IMG/VR virus record: IMGVR_UViG_3300048599_000816
Span: 32,545 to 96,544 of that record
From: a virus
DNA: 64,000 bases
Strand: one strand, 5' to 3'
Below the pieces are notes generated by a model that searched no databases, had not been told where the DNA came from, and worked only from the letters and a program-made list of their open reading frames with translations. The translations under genes and the position numbers were made by a program. This document shows, in pieces, positions 37,514 to 49,987 of this stretch; positions within the stretch are counted from its first letter, which is position 1; each line of letters opens with the position of its first letter.

Positions 37514-38179
37514 TTATATCATGTATTTGACATTGTGGACTAACTGTTGGAATTCGACTTTTTTTCTTATTTCAGGATCCCAAGCAAGACCCATACTTTT
37601 AAGATCTATAGTTTTTGTAATAGTAGCACCTTCTTTGTTCTCTTCTTTTGCAAGGATCCATACTGTGTCTGCAATAGCCATAGAACTTTCAATATCATGA
37701 CTTACTATAATCAATGTGCTATATTCATTTAAACAAGAAACTTTTACCAAAAGTTGAATTACTTTATCAACCATCAATGTATCAAGACCTGAAAATGGTT
37801 CGTCAAGCAATATAAATTTATTATCAGTTAAAACTTGTTGAAGGATACTTACACGTTGACGTTGGCCACCTGAAAGTTGATCAGGATATTTATTGAGATG
37901 TTCAACAAGCTCAAACTCTTCAGCATATTGTCGTATAGTTTGCTCTATTTCTGTTTGTGAGTAACTTTTATGACTATGTTTTAAACCTGCTTCAAGATTT
38001 TTCAAAATTGTTTTATGTTTAAAAAGAATGTAATTCTGTGGTATAATACCTACTTCTCCAGGCGTTACAGGATGTTGATCTGAGTCTATTAAAACAGTTC
38101 CTGTAGAAGGTTTTGATAAACCTGAAAGAATTTTGAATAATTGAGTTTTTCCAATTCCTGATCTACCATATTTGTCAGA
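37514..38179 (-). CDS. ABC-type ATPase domain, N-terminally truncated or frameshifted
   Basis: Open frame from stop 38180-38182 encodes Walker A GRSGIGKT, Q-loop, LSGGQRQRV, ILLDEP, IIVSHD but has no start codon before the P-loop (first start TTG 38005); overlaps 3' end of ORF 38089-38712 in another frame. Confidence 0.55.
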   Translation of the reverse strand, partial: SDKYGRSGIGKTQLFKILSGLSKPSTGTVLIDSDQHPVTPGEVGIIPQNYILFKHKTILKNLEAGLKHSHKSYSQTEIEQTIRQYAEEFELVEHLNKYPDQLSGGQRQRVSILQQVLTDNKFILLDEPFSGLDTLMVDKVIQLLVKVSCLNEYSTLIIVSHDIESSMAIADTVWILAKEENKEGATITKTIDLKSMGLAWDPEIRKKVEFQQLVHNVKYMI

Positions 38180-38712
38180 TTAGCAAGCATCGGTGAAAGT
38201 TGCTGTATATATTCCTTATAGCCTGTAATTGTGTCGGATATCAAACCAATTTCATCCATCATATTATTTTTCTTTGCAGCTTGACCTTTAGCTACAAGAC
38301 GAGTTAATTCTCTGTTTTTCTCGTCTATTTTCATTTGGATTGTTTCTTTTTGTGTATCAACTTCAATAGCTTGTTCACGAGCTTTCTCTCTTTGAATTTC
38401 CATATCTTTGATATCCTGCTCAGCAATAACAAAAGGATCCCATTGAAATATAAGACCAAAAGTGTATTTCATAAGGATATCCCAGATAGCAAGAACAGCG
38501 AGACGTAATTGTTTGTTTGTCACTAAAAAAAAGAAAAGACCAAGTGCGCCGAGAGCAATCCCGAAATTCACTGTGTTCCATACTACTTTTGTGAGAAAAG
38601 GTGCGGCATAAGCACCAAAAGCAATGAGTGCACCAAGACCTACTAAAACTTTAATAGGACCTCCTGGACGATTCCAGTAGGATTTCAATTTCTGGTCAGT
38701 TGAACCTTCCAT
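38089..38712 (-). CDS. membrane-anchored coiled-coil protein
   Basis: Two N-terminal TM helices then coiled coil. Confidence 0.45.
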   Translation of the reverse strand: MEGSTDQKLKSYWNRPGGPIKVLVGLGALIAFGAYAAPFLTKVVWNTVNFGIALGALGLFFFLVTNKQLRLAVLAIWDILMKYTFGLIFQWDPFVIAEQDIKDMEIQREKAREQAIEVDTQKETIQMKIDEKNRELTRLVAKGQAAKKNNMMDEIGLISDTITGYKEYIQQLSPMLANLTNMVDQELEKLNYSKFFQVYQNLLQELF

Positions 38713-38721
38713 AGTAACTCC

Positions 38722-39378
38722 TTATAATGTTGCGGTAATTTTCTGTATATCAGATTGAATTGTTTGCATCATAGCTTGATGTGCAATGAAAAAGCCTTCT
38801 GAATTCTTTTTTATTGCAGTTTCAACTTCAGTAATTTGCCGTGATAATTCAGCTATTAATTCTTGTTGTTCTGTAAGTTCTTTTGTCAATTCCTGGATTT
38901 TTGCATTTGCTGTTTCGATTTTTGTTTGTGCATCAGCAATTTGAGTTTTTCTAGAACCAATTTCTGTTTCAGTTTTTTGTTTTAATGCAGATTCAAAACC
39001 TGCACGATCTTTCTCTATTACATCAATGTATTTTGATGCACTCGAAATCAAAATATCTTTCGAAAGTCCGTTTACGCTAAGACTAGCAAAAGCTGAAATA
39101 AAACGTGTTCTTTCATCAGGTATGAGATTTTCTAATTTTTCTTCAACCTTTAAAAACTCATAGTAATCAGGACCTGGAAGATTTGCTTGCTCCATTAAGT
39201 CTTCAAAGTGTTTTTTAAATTTCTCAAACTCTTCTGAACTGACTGTGGGTGCAACATTTTTAAAAACAGGTAAAGGTGCTGCGGGTATGGAAGTTTGGTT
39301 TGACTGTGCTGTAGTTTGTTGTGTCTTTGGTTTTTCATCAAACTCAACAAATGCCGAAAAAATTCGTTTAAGACTCAT
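38722..39378 (-). CDS. coiled-coil protein
   Basis: Heptad-like charged repeats. Confidence 0.45.
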   Translation of the reverse strand: MSLKRIFSAFVEFDEKPKTQQTTAQSNQTSIPAAPLPVFKNVAPTVSSEEFEKFKKHFEDLMEQANLPGPDYYEFLKVEEKLENLIPDERTRFISAFASLSVNGLSKDILISSASKYIDVIEKDRAGFESALKQKTETEIGSRKTQIADAQTKIETANAKIQELTKELTEQQELIAELSRQITEVETAIKKNSEGFFIAHQAMMQTIQSDIQKITATL

Positions 39379-39478
39379 TTCTATTATCTCCTATTAATTC
39401 AACCTGCCTGAAATCTGTGGCATAAGACATATGTTTAAGAGTTTTTTAATTAAAGAGTAAACAAGTTGAAAAAAATAG

Positions 39479-40588
39479 TTATTCGCCCTTAATTTTTTTC
39501 ACAAATAAGATTAAACCTTGTAAAGAATCTATATGGTAAGATGAAATTACGGGTTTATCATCAACAAAACTTACCCATTGCTCAGGTGAAGGGCAACCAC
39601 AATGACTGACTACACGAACTGTTTGTTGACCCTCAGGATCATCATAAAGTTCCTTCGCGACCTTGAGTGGCACATTTCCTTTGACTGTCCAATAATACCA
39701 TGCCCGTTTAAAAACAAATTGCTCGTCAAAGGCGTTTACTGTACCATAAATAGTATATGGAACTTCTGAATTACCTTGAGGTTGTTGGTTTATCGTTATT
39801 CCTGCTAAATTCAATTCTACTTTAATATAAAGATCACAAAACTCATTTCCTGCAAGATTCAAAAATCTATAATTATTTTCTTTACTATTTTTTAGAAATG
39901 TTGTTGCTCTTTCTTCTTCTCGTTTGAACATGCAATCATGATGAAAGATTTTTTTTACAGTGCATATTTCTTCATGTTCTATTAAATTATCTGCTTCTTT
40001 CTCATTAAAATTAAGAGAATACCATGCGTCAGTTTCTTGTTTTAAAAGCTTATTTACTTCTTTATAGGTTTTTCCTGTATATGCACTTAAATCTTTAGTA
40101 ACTTGTTCGCATACTAAGTGTGATTCTAAAAAATTCTCAAGATCCCAAATTTGTCCACAATAAAAACATTTTCTAGAAGGGAGTCCCCACAAAATTGACG
40201 ATACATCTTCTTCACAATCTGCAAATTCTTCTTTTGTTAAAACAGGTTGTAAGTGTTTTATTTGTTTTTCAAATTTCCAAACATTGCCGCAAGAATCTAA
40301 AAATAACACACCAAGAACAATAAATTCTTCTAATTTTTCTTTTCTTTCATAAAAAGCTTGGTGTCTTTCACTAACTAACTTATAAAATTTATCGTAAGAA
40401 ACAAGAGAAGTTTGAATAGCCTTTTTTGAATTATACCCTTCTCTATATGCTTTCATTGATGCAATCATTGGTATAATATCATTAAGAATTTCTTCTACTT
40501 GTTTAATTTCATCTTGACTAAGTTGTTGACATTTTAAACTGACAACAAAACGATTCAATAAATCTAAAACTCTATTAAAATCTTTCAT
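39479..40588 (-). CDS. hypothetical protein
   Basis: 369-aa minus ORF. Confidence 0.45.
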   Translation of the reverse strand: MKDFNRVLDLLNRFVVSLKCQQLSQDEIKQVEEILNDIIPMIASMKAYREGYNSKKAIQTSLVSYDKFYKLVSERHQAFYERKEKLEEFIVLGVLFLDSCGNVWKFEKQIKHLQPVLTKEEFADCEEDVSSILWGLPSRKCFYCGQIWDLENFLESHLVCEQVTKDLSAYTGKTYKEVNKLLKQETDAWYSLNFNEKEADNLIEHEEICTVKKIFHHDCMFKREEERATTFLKNSKENNYRFLNLAGNEFCDLYIKVELNLAGITINQQPQGNSEVPYTIYGTVNAFDEQFVFKRAWYYWTVKGNVPLKVAKELYDDPEGQQTVRVVSHCGCPSPEQWVSFVDDKPVISSYHIDSLQGLILFVKKIKGE

Positions 40589-40597
40589 TAATAGCTC

Positions 40598-40951
40598 CTA
40601 AAAAGGTAAATCGTCTGAGGGTTCTTCTACATGGGATCTTTTACTTTTAAGCGGTTTTTTTTCAGGAACTTCTTGAGTATAGTCTTCAACAGGAATTTCG
40701 TTTGGTGACTTAAACAATTCATCACTACAATACGGTCTGTCATTATGATTCAAAAAAGTCTTAATTTCTATATGAGGCGAAGAAGCATGATGTTCATCAA
40801 ATACGAAATTAATGTCAATTTTTGTGACATAAGCTTTTATTAAAACATTATTTTCTAGAACATAAGCAATATCTGATACTTTAAAATCAAGTTCTAAAGT
40901 ATTTTCAGCTATTTGTTCTGAACCTAGTAAGTATTGAAATTTATTTTTCAT
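40598..40951 (-). CDS. hypothetical protein
   Basis: Minus ORF. Confidence 0.4.
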   Translation of the reverse strand: MKNKFQYLLGSEQIAENTLELDFKVSDIAYVLENNVLIKAYVTKIDINFVFDEHHASSPHIEIKTFLNHNDRPYCSDELFKSPNEIPVEDYTQEVPEKKPLKSKRSHVEEPSDDLPF

Positions 40952-42826: not shown

Positions 42827-44146
42827 TCATATTGGATATGTTCTCTTTATATACTCAAGTGCTTCATCGCGTGAAAATATTTGTTCTTCAAGTTGTTGAT
42901 CTTCAATATCAGTTAATATAGTTCTAAATAATTTACCTTTAGGATATCCCATAGCAATAAGATCATGACCCGTGACAATACGAGGAAGTTTATCAAGTTT
43001 TGTAGTCTCAGGAGTTGCTTCAAAAGTTTTCATTTTTTCTTTTACAAATTCATAATGTTCAAGACCCCCATGAGAAGACTCACAATCAACACGGTGTAAT
43101 TCCATGTGTTCATCAAACTTAGGAAGATTTAAAAACCTTTTAAGTTTTGAAACTCTCATTCTATCTACAGCAGTAAATTTCATGTGGTTTTCAACAAGTG
43201 AAACTACTTGCTCAACAAACTCATTAGAGAATTTAAGTCTTTTTAAAATGTCTTCAGCCATGCACTTTCCTTTTGAATCATGTCCTGAAAATCTAATACG
43301 ATCTTCAAAAGTTTGAGTTGGTGGTTTTCCAACATCATGTAAGAAAGTTCCCCAAAGAAGTGTATCAGAAGCATCTTTAGGAAGCATTGAAAGTGATAAA
43401 AGGACGTGCGTCCAAACGTCACCTTCAGGATGAAATTGCGGGGGTTGTTCACATCCCTTCATAGGAACAACTTCAGGAAGGAAAGCATGAAGAAGTTTAG
43501 TATCAAACAAAAGTTCAAGAGCTCTTTGTTTGTCTTCTACTCTTAAAATTTTCGTCATTTCATCTGCAATTCTTTCAGAGGAGACAGTAACAATTTCGTG
43601 AGCATAACGCTTTACTGCAAGGTAAGTCTCAGGCTCAATTTCAAAACTTAAACGAGCTGCAAAACGAACAACACGCATCAAACGAAGTTTGTCTTCTTCA
43701 ATGCGATCATTTGGATCACCAATGAGCCTTATAGTTTTTTGCTCTAAATCAGTCTGACCACCCACGACATCAATAATTTGTTTAGCCAATGGGTCATAAA
43801 ACATCCCATTAATCGTCAAATCTCGCCTTTTCGCGTCTTCTTCTAAAGACGAAAAAGAAACTGAGTCAGGACGACGGCCATCACTATATTCACCATCAGA
43901 ACGAAAAGTTGCAACTTCAAATTCTTCATCATCAATAATGACAACAATAACACCAAAAGCTTTTCCAACTGCAACAGTTTTTGGGAAAAGCGCTTCAATC
44001 TCGTCTGGACGCGCATTCGTTGCTATATCGATATCGTGAGGTTTGAGACTCAAAAGCATATCACGAACACAACCACCAGCATATACAGCTTGGAATCCTT
44101 GTTCTGCTAAAGTTTGAACAATGTAAAATGCTTTATCATTAAACAT
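42827..44146 (-). CDS. cca: tRNA nucleotidyltransferase (CCA-adding enzyme) with HD domain
   Basis: Head motif GGCVRDMLL..HDIDIAT, RRDLTINGMFYD, C-terminal HD (FLHDVGK). Confidence 0.8.
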   Translation of the reverse strand: MFNDKAFYIVQTLAEQGFQAVYAGGCVRDMLLSLKPHDIDIATNARPDEIEALFPKTVAVGKAFGVIVVIIDDEEFEVATFRSDGEYSDGRRPDSVSFSSLEEDAKRRDLTINGMFYDPLAKQIIDVVGGQTDLEQKTIRLIGDPNDRIEEDKLRLMRVVRFAARLSFEIEPETYLAVKRYAHEIVTVSSERIADEMTKILRVEDKQRALELLFDTKLLHAFLPEVVPMKGCEQPPQFHPEGDVWTHVLLSLSMLPKDASDTLLWGTFLHDVGKPPTQTFEDRIRFSGHDSKGKCMAEDILKRLKFSNEFVEQVVSLVENHMKFTAVDRMRVSKLKRFLNLPKFDEHMELHRVDCESSHGGLEHYEFVKEKMKTFEATPETTKLDKLPRIVTGHDLIAMGYPKGKLFRTILTDIEDQQLEEQIFSRDEALEYIKRTYPI

Positions 44147-47998: not shown

Positions 47999-49987
47999 CT
48001 ACTTTAATAAATTAAAAAATTCAAGTTCACTTAAAACGGGAATATTAAGTTGTTTAGCTCTATCAAGTTTTGAACCAGCATCTTCACCTACAACAAGATA
48101 AGTAAGACCCTTTTTAACTGCCTTCTCTATTTGACCACCATTCTTTATTACAATAGCATGCATATCTTCTCTTGTAAGACGTTCTCCATTTTTGTCTGTT
48201 GATTGAATTGTTCCTGTAAAACAAAATATTTTACCTTTTAAAGCTTCAGAATCAATCTTTACTTTATCAGGTTCTTTGATTGTTATTCCAACGTCAAAAA
48301 GATTTTTTATCACAATTGCTTTCTCTTGTAATCCTTTTTTAATTTGAGATGCAGTTTTTTCACCAATTCCATTAACTGCAACCAACTGCTCTTCTGTTGC
48401 ATTGTAAATTTTCAAAATATCATTGTAACCAGCTTTTATTAAAGCTTGAGCAGTTTCAGTAGAGAAATTAGGCATATTGAGACCTGCAATAAATTCAGGA
48501 AGTGTGATACACATTTTTGCTTTCAAGTTTTCAACAACTTTTGTTGCTGAACGTTCGCCCATGCGTTCAAGTTCTGAAACCTGACTAACTGTAAGTCTAT
48601 AAAAATCTGCAGGTTCTCTTACAAGATGCTTATCATAAAGCATTTGAATAATTTTTGGACCCACACTATCAATATTCAAAACATTTATCCAACGTTCAAG
48701 ATTCCCTGTGCCAAGACCTGAACATGCATCATTAGTACAAGATAAAAATTTACTTGCTGTTAATTGTCCCTTCACAAGAGAAATTTGAATTTCAGCTTTC
48801 CCCCCGCATTCAGGACAAGTAGATGGAACTTCAAAGTTTTCAGTACCACCACCAATATTTTTAACCATATAAGGAATAACATCATTTGCACGTTCAATAA
48901 GAACAGAGCAACCTTTTTTGAGTTTGAACGATTTAAAGATATCAACATTATGAAGACTGCATCGACGAACAGTAACACCACCCATAGATACTGGTTGTAA
49001 TATTGCAATTGGTGTTATTCTTCGACTATTTCCTATATGCCATATAACATCAAGAAGTATTGTTTCTTTTTGCATTGGTTTAAACTTCCAAGCAATTTGA
49101 GCTTTTGGATTTCCACCTAACATTCCATGTTGTTCTTGAAGAGCAAGAGAATTTGCACGTATTACAAGACCATCAATGTCATAAGGCAATGTTGCTCTTA
49201 TCGTTGATTCATATTCATCAAAGATTTGAATTGCTTCTGTTTTTGAAACTTTTTTCCAAAAACAAGTTTTAAGGCCGAAGCTCTCGATCATTAGAAGTTT
49301 TTCTTCTTCAGTAGTACAATTTACACCTTTGATGTTATAAAAATAGATTGACAAAAATTCGACATTTTCACCGTCAAGAGTTTTCTGAAGACCTACTGCA
49401 GTATTTCGAGGATTTTTATAGTCGCGACCACTCTTAACAATGAGAGCTTCAAAATCTTCTCTCAAGATAAAAACTTCACCATAGAGATTACCAGTAAAAC
49501 CTGGAATGAATGATTTAACATTTTTCATCTTTAAAACGTTTTGAAGCACATCTTCGCCTTCATTACCATCACCACGTGAAATTGCTTGTATGAGATTCCC
49601 ATTCGAATAAACAAGATCAATAGAACCACCATCCATTTTGTCGAAAACAACGTATGAAGTATCGCCAATTTCTTCACACCATTTTTCAAACTCACTACGA
49701 AAATTGACTTTGTTTAAAGATGTCATGATAATTCGATGAGCAGCTTTTTTCCATTCAGAAGCAACAACAGGTGCACCAACTTGGTTAAGAAATTCTTCAA
49801 CTTCTTTCACAAGTTTTGGGTCAATAGATTTTTTAGGAAGAAGAACTCTATTATAAAGAGTTATAAGGCGATCTTTTTTTGTATCATACTCAGCATCAGG
49901 AATAATGGATTCACTATCGTTGTAATAAGCATTAGAAGCTTTCACTAATACTTCAAGGATTTCCCTTGCTTCATCAAATAATCTCAT
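47999..49987 (-). CDS. ligA: NAD-dependent DNA ligase
   Basis: Adenylation motif KMDGG, OB motif GGVTVRRCSLHN, Cys4 zinc finger, HhH, C-terminal BRCT; SD AAGGAG. Confidence 0.85.
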   Translation of the reverse strand: MRLFDEAREILEVLVKASNAYYNDSESIIPDAEYDTKKDRLITLYNRVLLPKKSIDPKLVKEVEEFLNQVGAPVVASEWKKAAHRIIMTSLNKVNFRSEFEKWCEEIGDTSYVVFDKMDGGSIDLVYSNGNLIQAISRGDGNEGEDVLQNVLKMKNVKSFIPGFTGNLYGEVFILREDFEALIVKSGRDYKNPRNTAVGLQKTLDGENVEFLSIYFYNIKGVNCTTEEEKLLMIESFGLKTCFWKKVSKTEAIQIFDEYESTIRATLPYDIDGLVIRANSLALQEQHGMLGGNPKAQIAWKFKPMQKETILLDVIWHIGNSRRITPIAILQPVSMGGVTVRRCSLHNVDIFKSFKLKKGCSVLIERANDVIPYMVKNIGGGTENFEVPSTCPECGGKAEIQISLVKGQLTASKFLSCTNDACSGLGTGNLERWINVLNIDSVGPKIIQMLYDKHLVREPADFYRLTVSQVSELERMGERSATKVVENLKAKMCITLPEFIAGLNMPNFSTETAQALIKAGYNDILKIYNATEEQLVAVNGIGEKTASQIKKGLQEKAIVIKNLFDVGITIKEPDKVKIDSEALKGKIFCFTGTIQSTDKNGERLTREDMHAIVIKNGGQIEKAVKKGLTYLVVGEDAGSKLDRAKQLNIPVLSELEFFNLLK

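Follow-up and report, generated by a model that had tools for sequence, protein, structure and literature searches.

The ATPase subunits of TauB/NitT-type importers (COG1116) carry Walker A, Q-loop, LSGGQ, Walker B, D-loop, and H-loop motifs, and the same motifs are found in an ABC ATPase remnant of the window, by which we mean the whole 64 kb stretch of viral DNA that was analyzed. Unlike these ATPases, the remnant is without the first ~51 residues, a start codon, and an adjoining permease or periplasmic partner. It is 64–68% identical to ABC ATPases of Chitinophaga and Cytophagaceae. The JGI name for the TauB/NitT type is [quoted passage not shown]. Programmed −1 frameshift sites, such as those of dnaX and of the phage tail assembly chaperones G/GT, resemble the window in that two ORFs overlap and the downstream one lies in the −1 frame. 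Unlike at those sites, the arrangement here is unconserved, it has no slippery heptamer, and the downstream frame is a truncated domain. Deletion pseudogenes in phage accessory regions share further features with the window, namely a clean two-breakpoint join, an out-of-frame chimeric ORF, and the loss of a non-essential host-like operon; compared with such pseudogenes in general, the window remnant is unusually young and shows no decay. The system with the same gene order is a five-gene module found at L001, L003–L007, L033, and ~60 IMG/VR loci. Gene 1, the 5′ half of gene 2, and the 3′ four-fifths of gene 5 occur in the window in the same order and orientation, but, unlike in the intact module, the middle is deleted. 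A full-text literature search found no description of this module, and PMC10746233, which deals with efflux-type ABC genes in soil viruses, is unrelated to it.

With high probability, a ~427 kb phage has here lost ~3.3–3.7 kb from a conserved five-gene operon in one deletion, and the region is the scar. The ATPase remnant is an ordinary, recent, deletion-derived pseudogene and not a frameshifted or fused ATPase. The window itself is part of a huge phage, as follows from its genes that match phage protein families, from JGI contigs, as long as 426,911 nt, that encode products of the region, and from the nearest relatives, which are viral contigs in IMG/VR with lengths of 416 and 424 kb. It has ~32% GC, and nearly all ORFs of at least 100 aa lie on the minus strand. 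Three genes were recognized by matches to phage protein families:

57537-60977: DnaE-type DNA polymerase
47999-49987: NAD-dependent DNA ligase
42827-44146: tRNA nucleotidyltransferase

ARAGORN found no tRNA genes in the 64 kb window, though a tRNA nucleotidyltransferase is encoded. A blastn search of positions 36000–40600 against 50,697 GenBank phages gave no match.

The original prediction described an ABC ATPase frame that has a complete Walker A and no start codon ahead of the P-loop, and this description proved accurate. On the minus strand, the frame extends from a TAA at 38182–38180 to a stop at 37516–37514 and comprises 221 sense codons. Its translation begins *SDKYGRSGIGKTQLF... directly after the TAA. 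Only four codons (TCT GAC AAA TAT) separate that stop from the P-loop, and none of them is ATG, GTG, or TTG. As the probability of a 221-codon open frame is ~4e-8 at 33% GC, the frame is not a product of chance. Its features are as follows:

38180..38182, minus strand: TAA closing the ATPase frame upstream, inside gene-2-derived sequence
37514..38167, minus strand: ABC ATPase remnant, approximately residues 52-268 of the closest intact relative P0001 (tblastn, Pfam, NCBIfam, motifs)
38167-38144, minus strand: Walker A, GRSGIGKT
38044-38030, minus strand: Q-loop, IPQNY
37876-37862, minus strand: signature, LSGGQ
37816-37796, minus strand: Walker B, FILLDEP
37792-37781, minus strand: D-loop, SGLD
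37705-37694, minus strand: H-loop, VSHD
38003..38005, minus strand: TTG, the earliest in-frame start codon, past Walker A; it opens a 163-aa ORF called by JGI (P0004)

All six motifs of the ABC nucleotide-binding domain, from Walker A to the H-loop, are thus present between 38167 and 37694. A tblastn search with residues 52–268 of the L009 protein (P0001) showed 86% identity over 38167–37517. The Pfam model ABC_tran (PF00005) matched the remnant with E=3e-24 and 86.6 bits (cutoff 25), over profile positions 18–136 of 137 only. Matches to NCBIfam ABC models all begin at remnant residue 5, which corresponds to model positions ~30–50. The best of them are importer ATPases (PhnT2, ThiQ, PotA, nitrate, taurine; E=1e-25 to 1e-33), and none of the equivalog models reaches its own cutoff.

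The domain is incomplete: ahead of Walker A, it has neither the N-terminal beta-strands nor the aromatic residue of the A-loop. From residue 5 onward, the remnant aligns to full-length ATPases starting at their residues 49–69 (P0001: 52; L001: 69). The missing ~51 residues hold six invariant columns, L36, L44, R56, and Q61-G62-Q63 in L001 numbering. The nearly invariant aromatic Y22 (L001), which we take to be the A-loop residue, also falls within the missing part. The remnant has no start codon from which Walker A could be translated, and the 163-aa product starting at TTG 38005, without Walker A, would be unable to bind ATP.

A search of IMG/VR with both window products returned seven loci, and a profile scan returned 69, of which 65 were informative. 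These define a module whose genes follow one another on one strand, encoding a coiled-coil protein, a two-TM/coiled-coil protein, a 588-aa OmpA-family protein, a TauC-like permease, and the ATPase. It was found on ~60 huge-phage contigs in IMG/VR (100–578 kb, of differing GC) and on one Chitinophaga chromosome (L033), at the following loci:

L001, 1486-6654: module locus
L033, 3588-8810: module locus on the Chitinophaga chromosome
L003-L007: module loci
L034-L099: module loci

The OmpA-family protein, permease, and ATPase genes stand in a row at ~61 of the 65 informative loci, and 49 loci also have the TM/coiled-coil gene upstream. L001 and all of L003, L004, L005, L006, and L007 share one gene order. 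Gene 1 encodes a coiled-coil protein of ~220 aa; its position is occupied in L001, L006, L007, and L033 as in the window, it is absent in L005, and a weak match lies upstream in L003 and L004. In the product of gene 2 (316–334 aa), a TM hairpin at the N terminus is combined with a long coiled coil; the gene 3 product (587–591 aa) has a membrane anchor at its N terminus and a peptidoglycan-binding OmpA domain at its C terminus. This OmpA domain is the sole recognized part of a protein that occupies the place expected for a substrate-binding protein; its N-terminal ~470 aa matched no Pfam family or PDB sequence. Gene 4 encodes a BPD_transp_1 (TauC-like) permease of ~257–294 aa, and gene 5 an ABC ATPase of 262–285 aa with its own ATG ~50 codons before the P-loop. 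In L033, the corresponding NCBI names are DUF4047 domain-containing protein, hypothetical or "PspA/IM30 family", OmpA family, ABC permease, and ABC ATP-binding protein. In the relatives other than the deletion variant L002, genes 2 and 5 are separate, with an interval of 3.3–3.7 kb that holds two or three further genes. The closest ATPases are all full length: P0001 (268 aa, 86% identity), P0002 (81%; 262 aa as called, 269 aa as an ORF from an upstream ATG), and P0003 (78%). Two modules may be eroded, as no OmpA-family protein was detected in L088 and that of L083 matches only residues 25–453 of 588.

The window's closest lineage has an additional gene in this interval, a 121-aa ORF without a Pfam match (MIQVHGKFK...MIFMCKK; L002 5384–5749, L009 28–393, L010 1115–1480). 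It sits 5′ of the ATPase and after the permease, the latter being seen in L002 and L010, while contig L009 is too short to include it. L010, the contig of P0002, has the end of the OmpA-family gene, the permease, the 121-aa ORF, and the ATPase. The ORF is absent from L001 and L003–L007.

Upstream of the remnant, and overlapping it in another frame as the original prediction had noted, lies the 3′ end of a membrane/coiled-coil ORF (38712–38089, minus strand; 207 aa). The shared stretch, 38179–38089, is 91 nt long. Hydropathy indicates two to three hydrophobic segments in this ORF (~residues 19–41, 43–66, and 71–89), followed by a coiled coil. Read against the module, the sequence from gene 1 to the overlap resolves as follows:

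38722..39378, minus strand: gene 1, intact, 218-aa coiled-coil protein (tblastn with the L001 homologue, residues 18-216 of 222, 43% identity)
38173..38712, minus strand: 5′ part of gene 2, codons 1-180, two-TM and coiled-coil protein (alignments, tblastn, hydropathy)
38168..38172, minus strand: deletion junction, 5 nt (AATAT) assignable to neither parent gene; homology ends on both sides
38089..38167, minus strand: ATPase-derived DNA read out of frame by the upstream ORF, tail ...VDQELEKLNYSKFFQVYQNLLQELF, with TAA at 38091-38089 (frame arithmetic, DNA alignment)

Several alignments place the end of gene 2 homology at the same point. When the 207-aa ORF was aligned locally to six full-length homologues, most alignments stopped at window residue 179; a tblastn search with the L001 homologue ends at 38173, and all 18 full-coverage metagenome relatives match up to residue 179 only. 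With 316–334 aa in the relatives, gene 2 has lost the C-terminal ~145 residues in the window. ATPase homology begins at 38167 by tblastn, or at 38168 in a DNA alignment to L009, and the DNA of 38089..38167 aligns to the ATPase genes of L009, L010, and L002. The window therefore retains gene 1, codons 1–180 of gene 2 (5′ 54%), and ATPase codons ~52–268 (3′ 81%), the last two pieces being joined out of frame within 5 nt (38172–38168). The frames are offset by one nucleotide (38712−38179 = 533 = 3×177+2), so that the ATPase frame is −1 relative to gene 2, and gene 2 now ends in a tail of 27–28 residues read from ATPase DNA in the wrong frame.

The missing stretch would measure ~3.27 kb by the L001 layout and ~3.7 kb by an L010-like layout, which includes the 121-aa ORF. 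The whole 64 kb window was searched by tblastn (E<=10) for the missing parts, and no match was obtained with the last 145 aa of gene 2, with the first 52 aa of the ATPase, or with the OmpA-family protein, the 121-aa ORF, or either of two permeases. Neither a permease (BPD_transp_1) nor a periplasmic component of an ABC importer operon is encoded in the 64 kb, and both are present in the relatives. The transporter would thus be non-functional in the window phage, the search for partner genes having covered 64 kb of a ~427 kb genome. With respect to the five-gene module, the window is a deleted derivative and not an intact member.

In the proposed course of events, the ancestral operon would have had the order coiled-coil, two-TM/coiled-coil, 588-aa OmpA-family, TauC-like permease, the 121-aa ORF in the closest lineage, and TauB/NitT-type ATPase. 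A single deletion, probably by illegitimate recombination, would have removed ~145 codons from the end of gene 2, the OmpA-family and permease genes in their entirety, and ~51 codons from the start of the ATPase. What remained on either side would have been joined within the 5 nt at 38172–38168, one nucleotide out of frame. This would leave a chimeric 207-aa ORF and a headless, startless ATPase remnant without its N-terminal strands. No repeats flank the junction. A 37-mer across it had no match in the IMG/VR set searched, and no sibling genome (>95% identity) with an intact operon was found. A metagenome scan with gene 2 gave nothing above 53% identity over the full query, with short partial matches of up to 65%.

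Two observations near the breakpoint concern its exact position and origin. An 8-nt match, GACAAATA, is shared between window positions 38169–38176 and L009 569–576, where it lies in the G-Q-I codons and begins 20 nt upstream of the GRSG codons. To count it as homology, a second deletion of 11 nt would be needed, and we treated it as chance (roughly p=0.03). In L092 (6533–8395), the ATPase gene is interrupted inside Walker A (APSGCGK/C...HN/TTLF, slashes marking the intein boundaries) by an intein that includes a homing endonuclease (Pfam matches: Hom_end_hint, E=4e-24; Hom_end, E=9e-11), and the resulting ORF has 620 aa. An endonuclease of this type was considered as a trigger of the deletion and rejected, because the window DNA across the L092-type insertion site (GGA AAA/ACT) is intact and the breakpoint lies 21 nt upstream.

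If the assembler had skipped ~3.5 kb or introduced an indel, the true genome would still have an intact operon, and the junction was indeed judged from assembled contigs that all come from one source (JGI) and possibly from related samples. The exact 207-aa and 163-aa products are each found on five JGI contigs, the longest of 426,911 nt; four of the five were read, and the size classes range from <2 kb to 0.2–1 Mb. The same join therefore recurs on contigs of 1.8 kb to 427 kb, and L008 (1,769 nt, sample 3300048579) is 100% identical to window 37139–38907 over its full 1,769 nt, spanning the junction. No repeat is present that could mislead a de Bruijn assembler, and a 22-mer at the junction is unique in the window even when three mismatches are allowed. 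Nor can the missing genes be recovered by correcting one indel: upstream of 38173, the sequence shows homology to gene 2, in the frame of that gene. A misjoin or indel is unlikely, and we hold an intact operon in the true genome to be very improbable. Still less credible is a functional membrane-tethered ATPase, made by programmed −1 frameshifting or as an in-frame fusion masked by a sequencing indel. The original prediction had proposed such a fusion of a TM/coiled-coil N terminus to an ABC ATPase, and the −1 offset, the 91-nt overlap, and the intact motifs from Walker A onward are in its favor. The slippery heptamer it asked for was sought in the overlap, and no XXXYYYZ sequence occurs in any frame of 38200–38080; to keep Walker A, a shift would be confined to the 12 nt of 38179–38168. 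The join has no homopolymer, the only one in the overlap being an A5 inside the Walker A codons, 20 nt away, and the sequence is identical on all five contigs. A fusion product would still miss the ~51 N-terminal ATPase residues, including the invariant positions and Y22, and no permease is left in the window to which the ATPase could dock.

Comparison with orthologs, in which the original prediction had named independent starts as the outcome that would speak against it, showed that the relatives' ATPases start independently at their own ATG. The overlapping two-ORF arrangement occurs in no relative; apart from the deletion variant L002, all have the ORFs separated by two or three genes. The suggested SMC/ABC-like membrane-tethered ATPase was likewise abandoned. 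An SMC/Rad50/RecN-type protein does not fit, as the coiled coil lies upstream of Walker A and derives from a different gene instead of being inserted between ATPase halves; the SMC_N match reaches 19.1 bits against a cutoff of 40, and SbcC_Walker_B 16.9 against 27. As for the remaining suggestion, a decaying gene, the region does contain a pseudogene, and it arose from a multi-kilobase deletion, but it is too young for visible decay.

The age of the deletion scar can be judged from the remnant itself. Its 217 codons contain no disabling mutation. An alignment of 117 sequences, namely the remnant and 116 homologues with a minimum length of 255 aa, has 93 columns with a conservation of 90% or more. 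The remnant deviates at 2 of them, a number that is also the median for the alignment, and its nearest relatives share both deviations. The dN/dS ratio between the remnant and L009 is 0.10 with a dS of ~1, and pairs of intact genes with estimable dS gave 0.06–0.12. Zero private changes at ~214 non-synonymous sites of conserved codons place a rough bound of <~0.014 substitutions per site. In the overlap, most differences from L009 are synonymous when read in the ATPase frame, a pattern that fits selection acting before the deletion rather than on the new frame. Nearly all divergence would thus predate the deletion and have accumulated under purifying selection, the neutral period since then would be very short, and the deletion appears to be evolutionarily very recent.

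The same 217 codons without a disabling mutation could also mean that the deletion is real and that the 207-aa chimera or the ATPase remnant has kept or gained a function, being under selection rather than young. The upstream gene 1 is intact, and the out-of-frame tail, YQNLLQELF, resembles the native Y-x-[NSD]-L-L, a likeness noticed post hoc. A very recent deletion accounts equally well for the preserved frame, no start codon permits translation of Walker A, and the mostly synonymous overlap differences from L009 speak against selection in the new frame. We therefore regard retained function as improbable, and prefer a recent deletion followed by little time for decay.

The tail resemblance can be stated more precisely. 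The chimeric ORF ends (window 38089–38115) in YQNLLQELF, which recalls the native C terminus Y-[DQNT]-[NSD]-L-[LI] followed by 1–4 residues, and the native Y-x-[NSD]-L-L motif is found in six of eight full-length gene 2 homologues. With ten occurrences in the 128,000 six-frame residues of the window, ~0.002 would be expected in a 28-aa tail, an estimate made post hoc. The resemblance to the family C terminus is probably due to chance.

The family of gene 2 has received different labels from annotators: "PspA/IM30 family protein" for a homologue in one RefSeq record, and "DUF3084 family" at JGI. Membership of the upstream ORF in PspA/IM30 (PF04012) was not supported, its score being 18.4 bits against a cutoff of 33.9 (E=0.0018). 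The full-length homologues in L033 and L001 had no Pfam match at E<=0.01, a PDB profile search with gene 2 returned generic coiled coils only, and hhalign of gene 2 against E. coli PspA gave a probability of 7%. The PspA/IM30 label is weak, and the product is described here just as a two-TM/coiled-coil protein.

A different, independent deletion affects the same operon in L002 (4325–5352; the same as contig L035), which belongs to a related 424 kb phage. Gene 1 is cut there at ~residue 78–87, leaving a 90-aa stump, and the TM/coiled-coil and OmpA-family genes are gone. The permease starts at a TTG that overlaps the gene 1 stump, and the ATPase is intact. Because the deletions in the window and in L002/L035 differ, the accessory operon has been eroded repeatedly in the window's clade; it is kept in most huge phages. 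The two losses also show that a huge phage can do without the operon.

For annotation, the JGI 163-aa "ABC ATPase" and the 207-aa "DUF3084" protein should be treated as two halves of a deletion scar and not as evidence of an auxiliary transporter gene or of a novel type of fusion. The scar itself is of little consequence; the uncharacterized ABC/OmpA/coiled-coil module of huge phages and Bacteroidota is the better lead. Tentatively, the scar may mark the loss of a possibly undescribed module, perhaps an envelope-spanning ABC system, a lesser option being that the tail motif keeps the chimera. If a phage-encoded envelope-spanning ABC system is indeed involved, natural deletion would have made both the window phage and L002 into mutants that show the module to be dispensable.

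Two genes flank the region on the minus strand, and no record was found of the exact product of either. The gene at 35403–36173 encodes a DUF7873 protein (E=5e-73), and that at 39479–40588 a 369-aa protein with a conserved C-terminal WYYW...HCGCP...SYHIDS region. A homologue of the latter (343 aa; weak phrog_35792 match) adjoins the module in L002 too.
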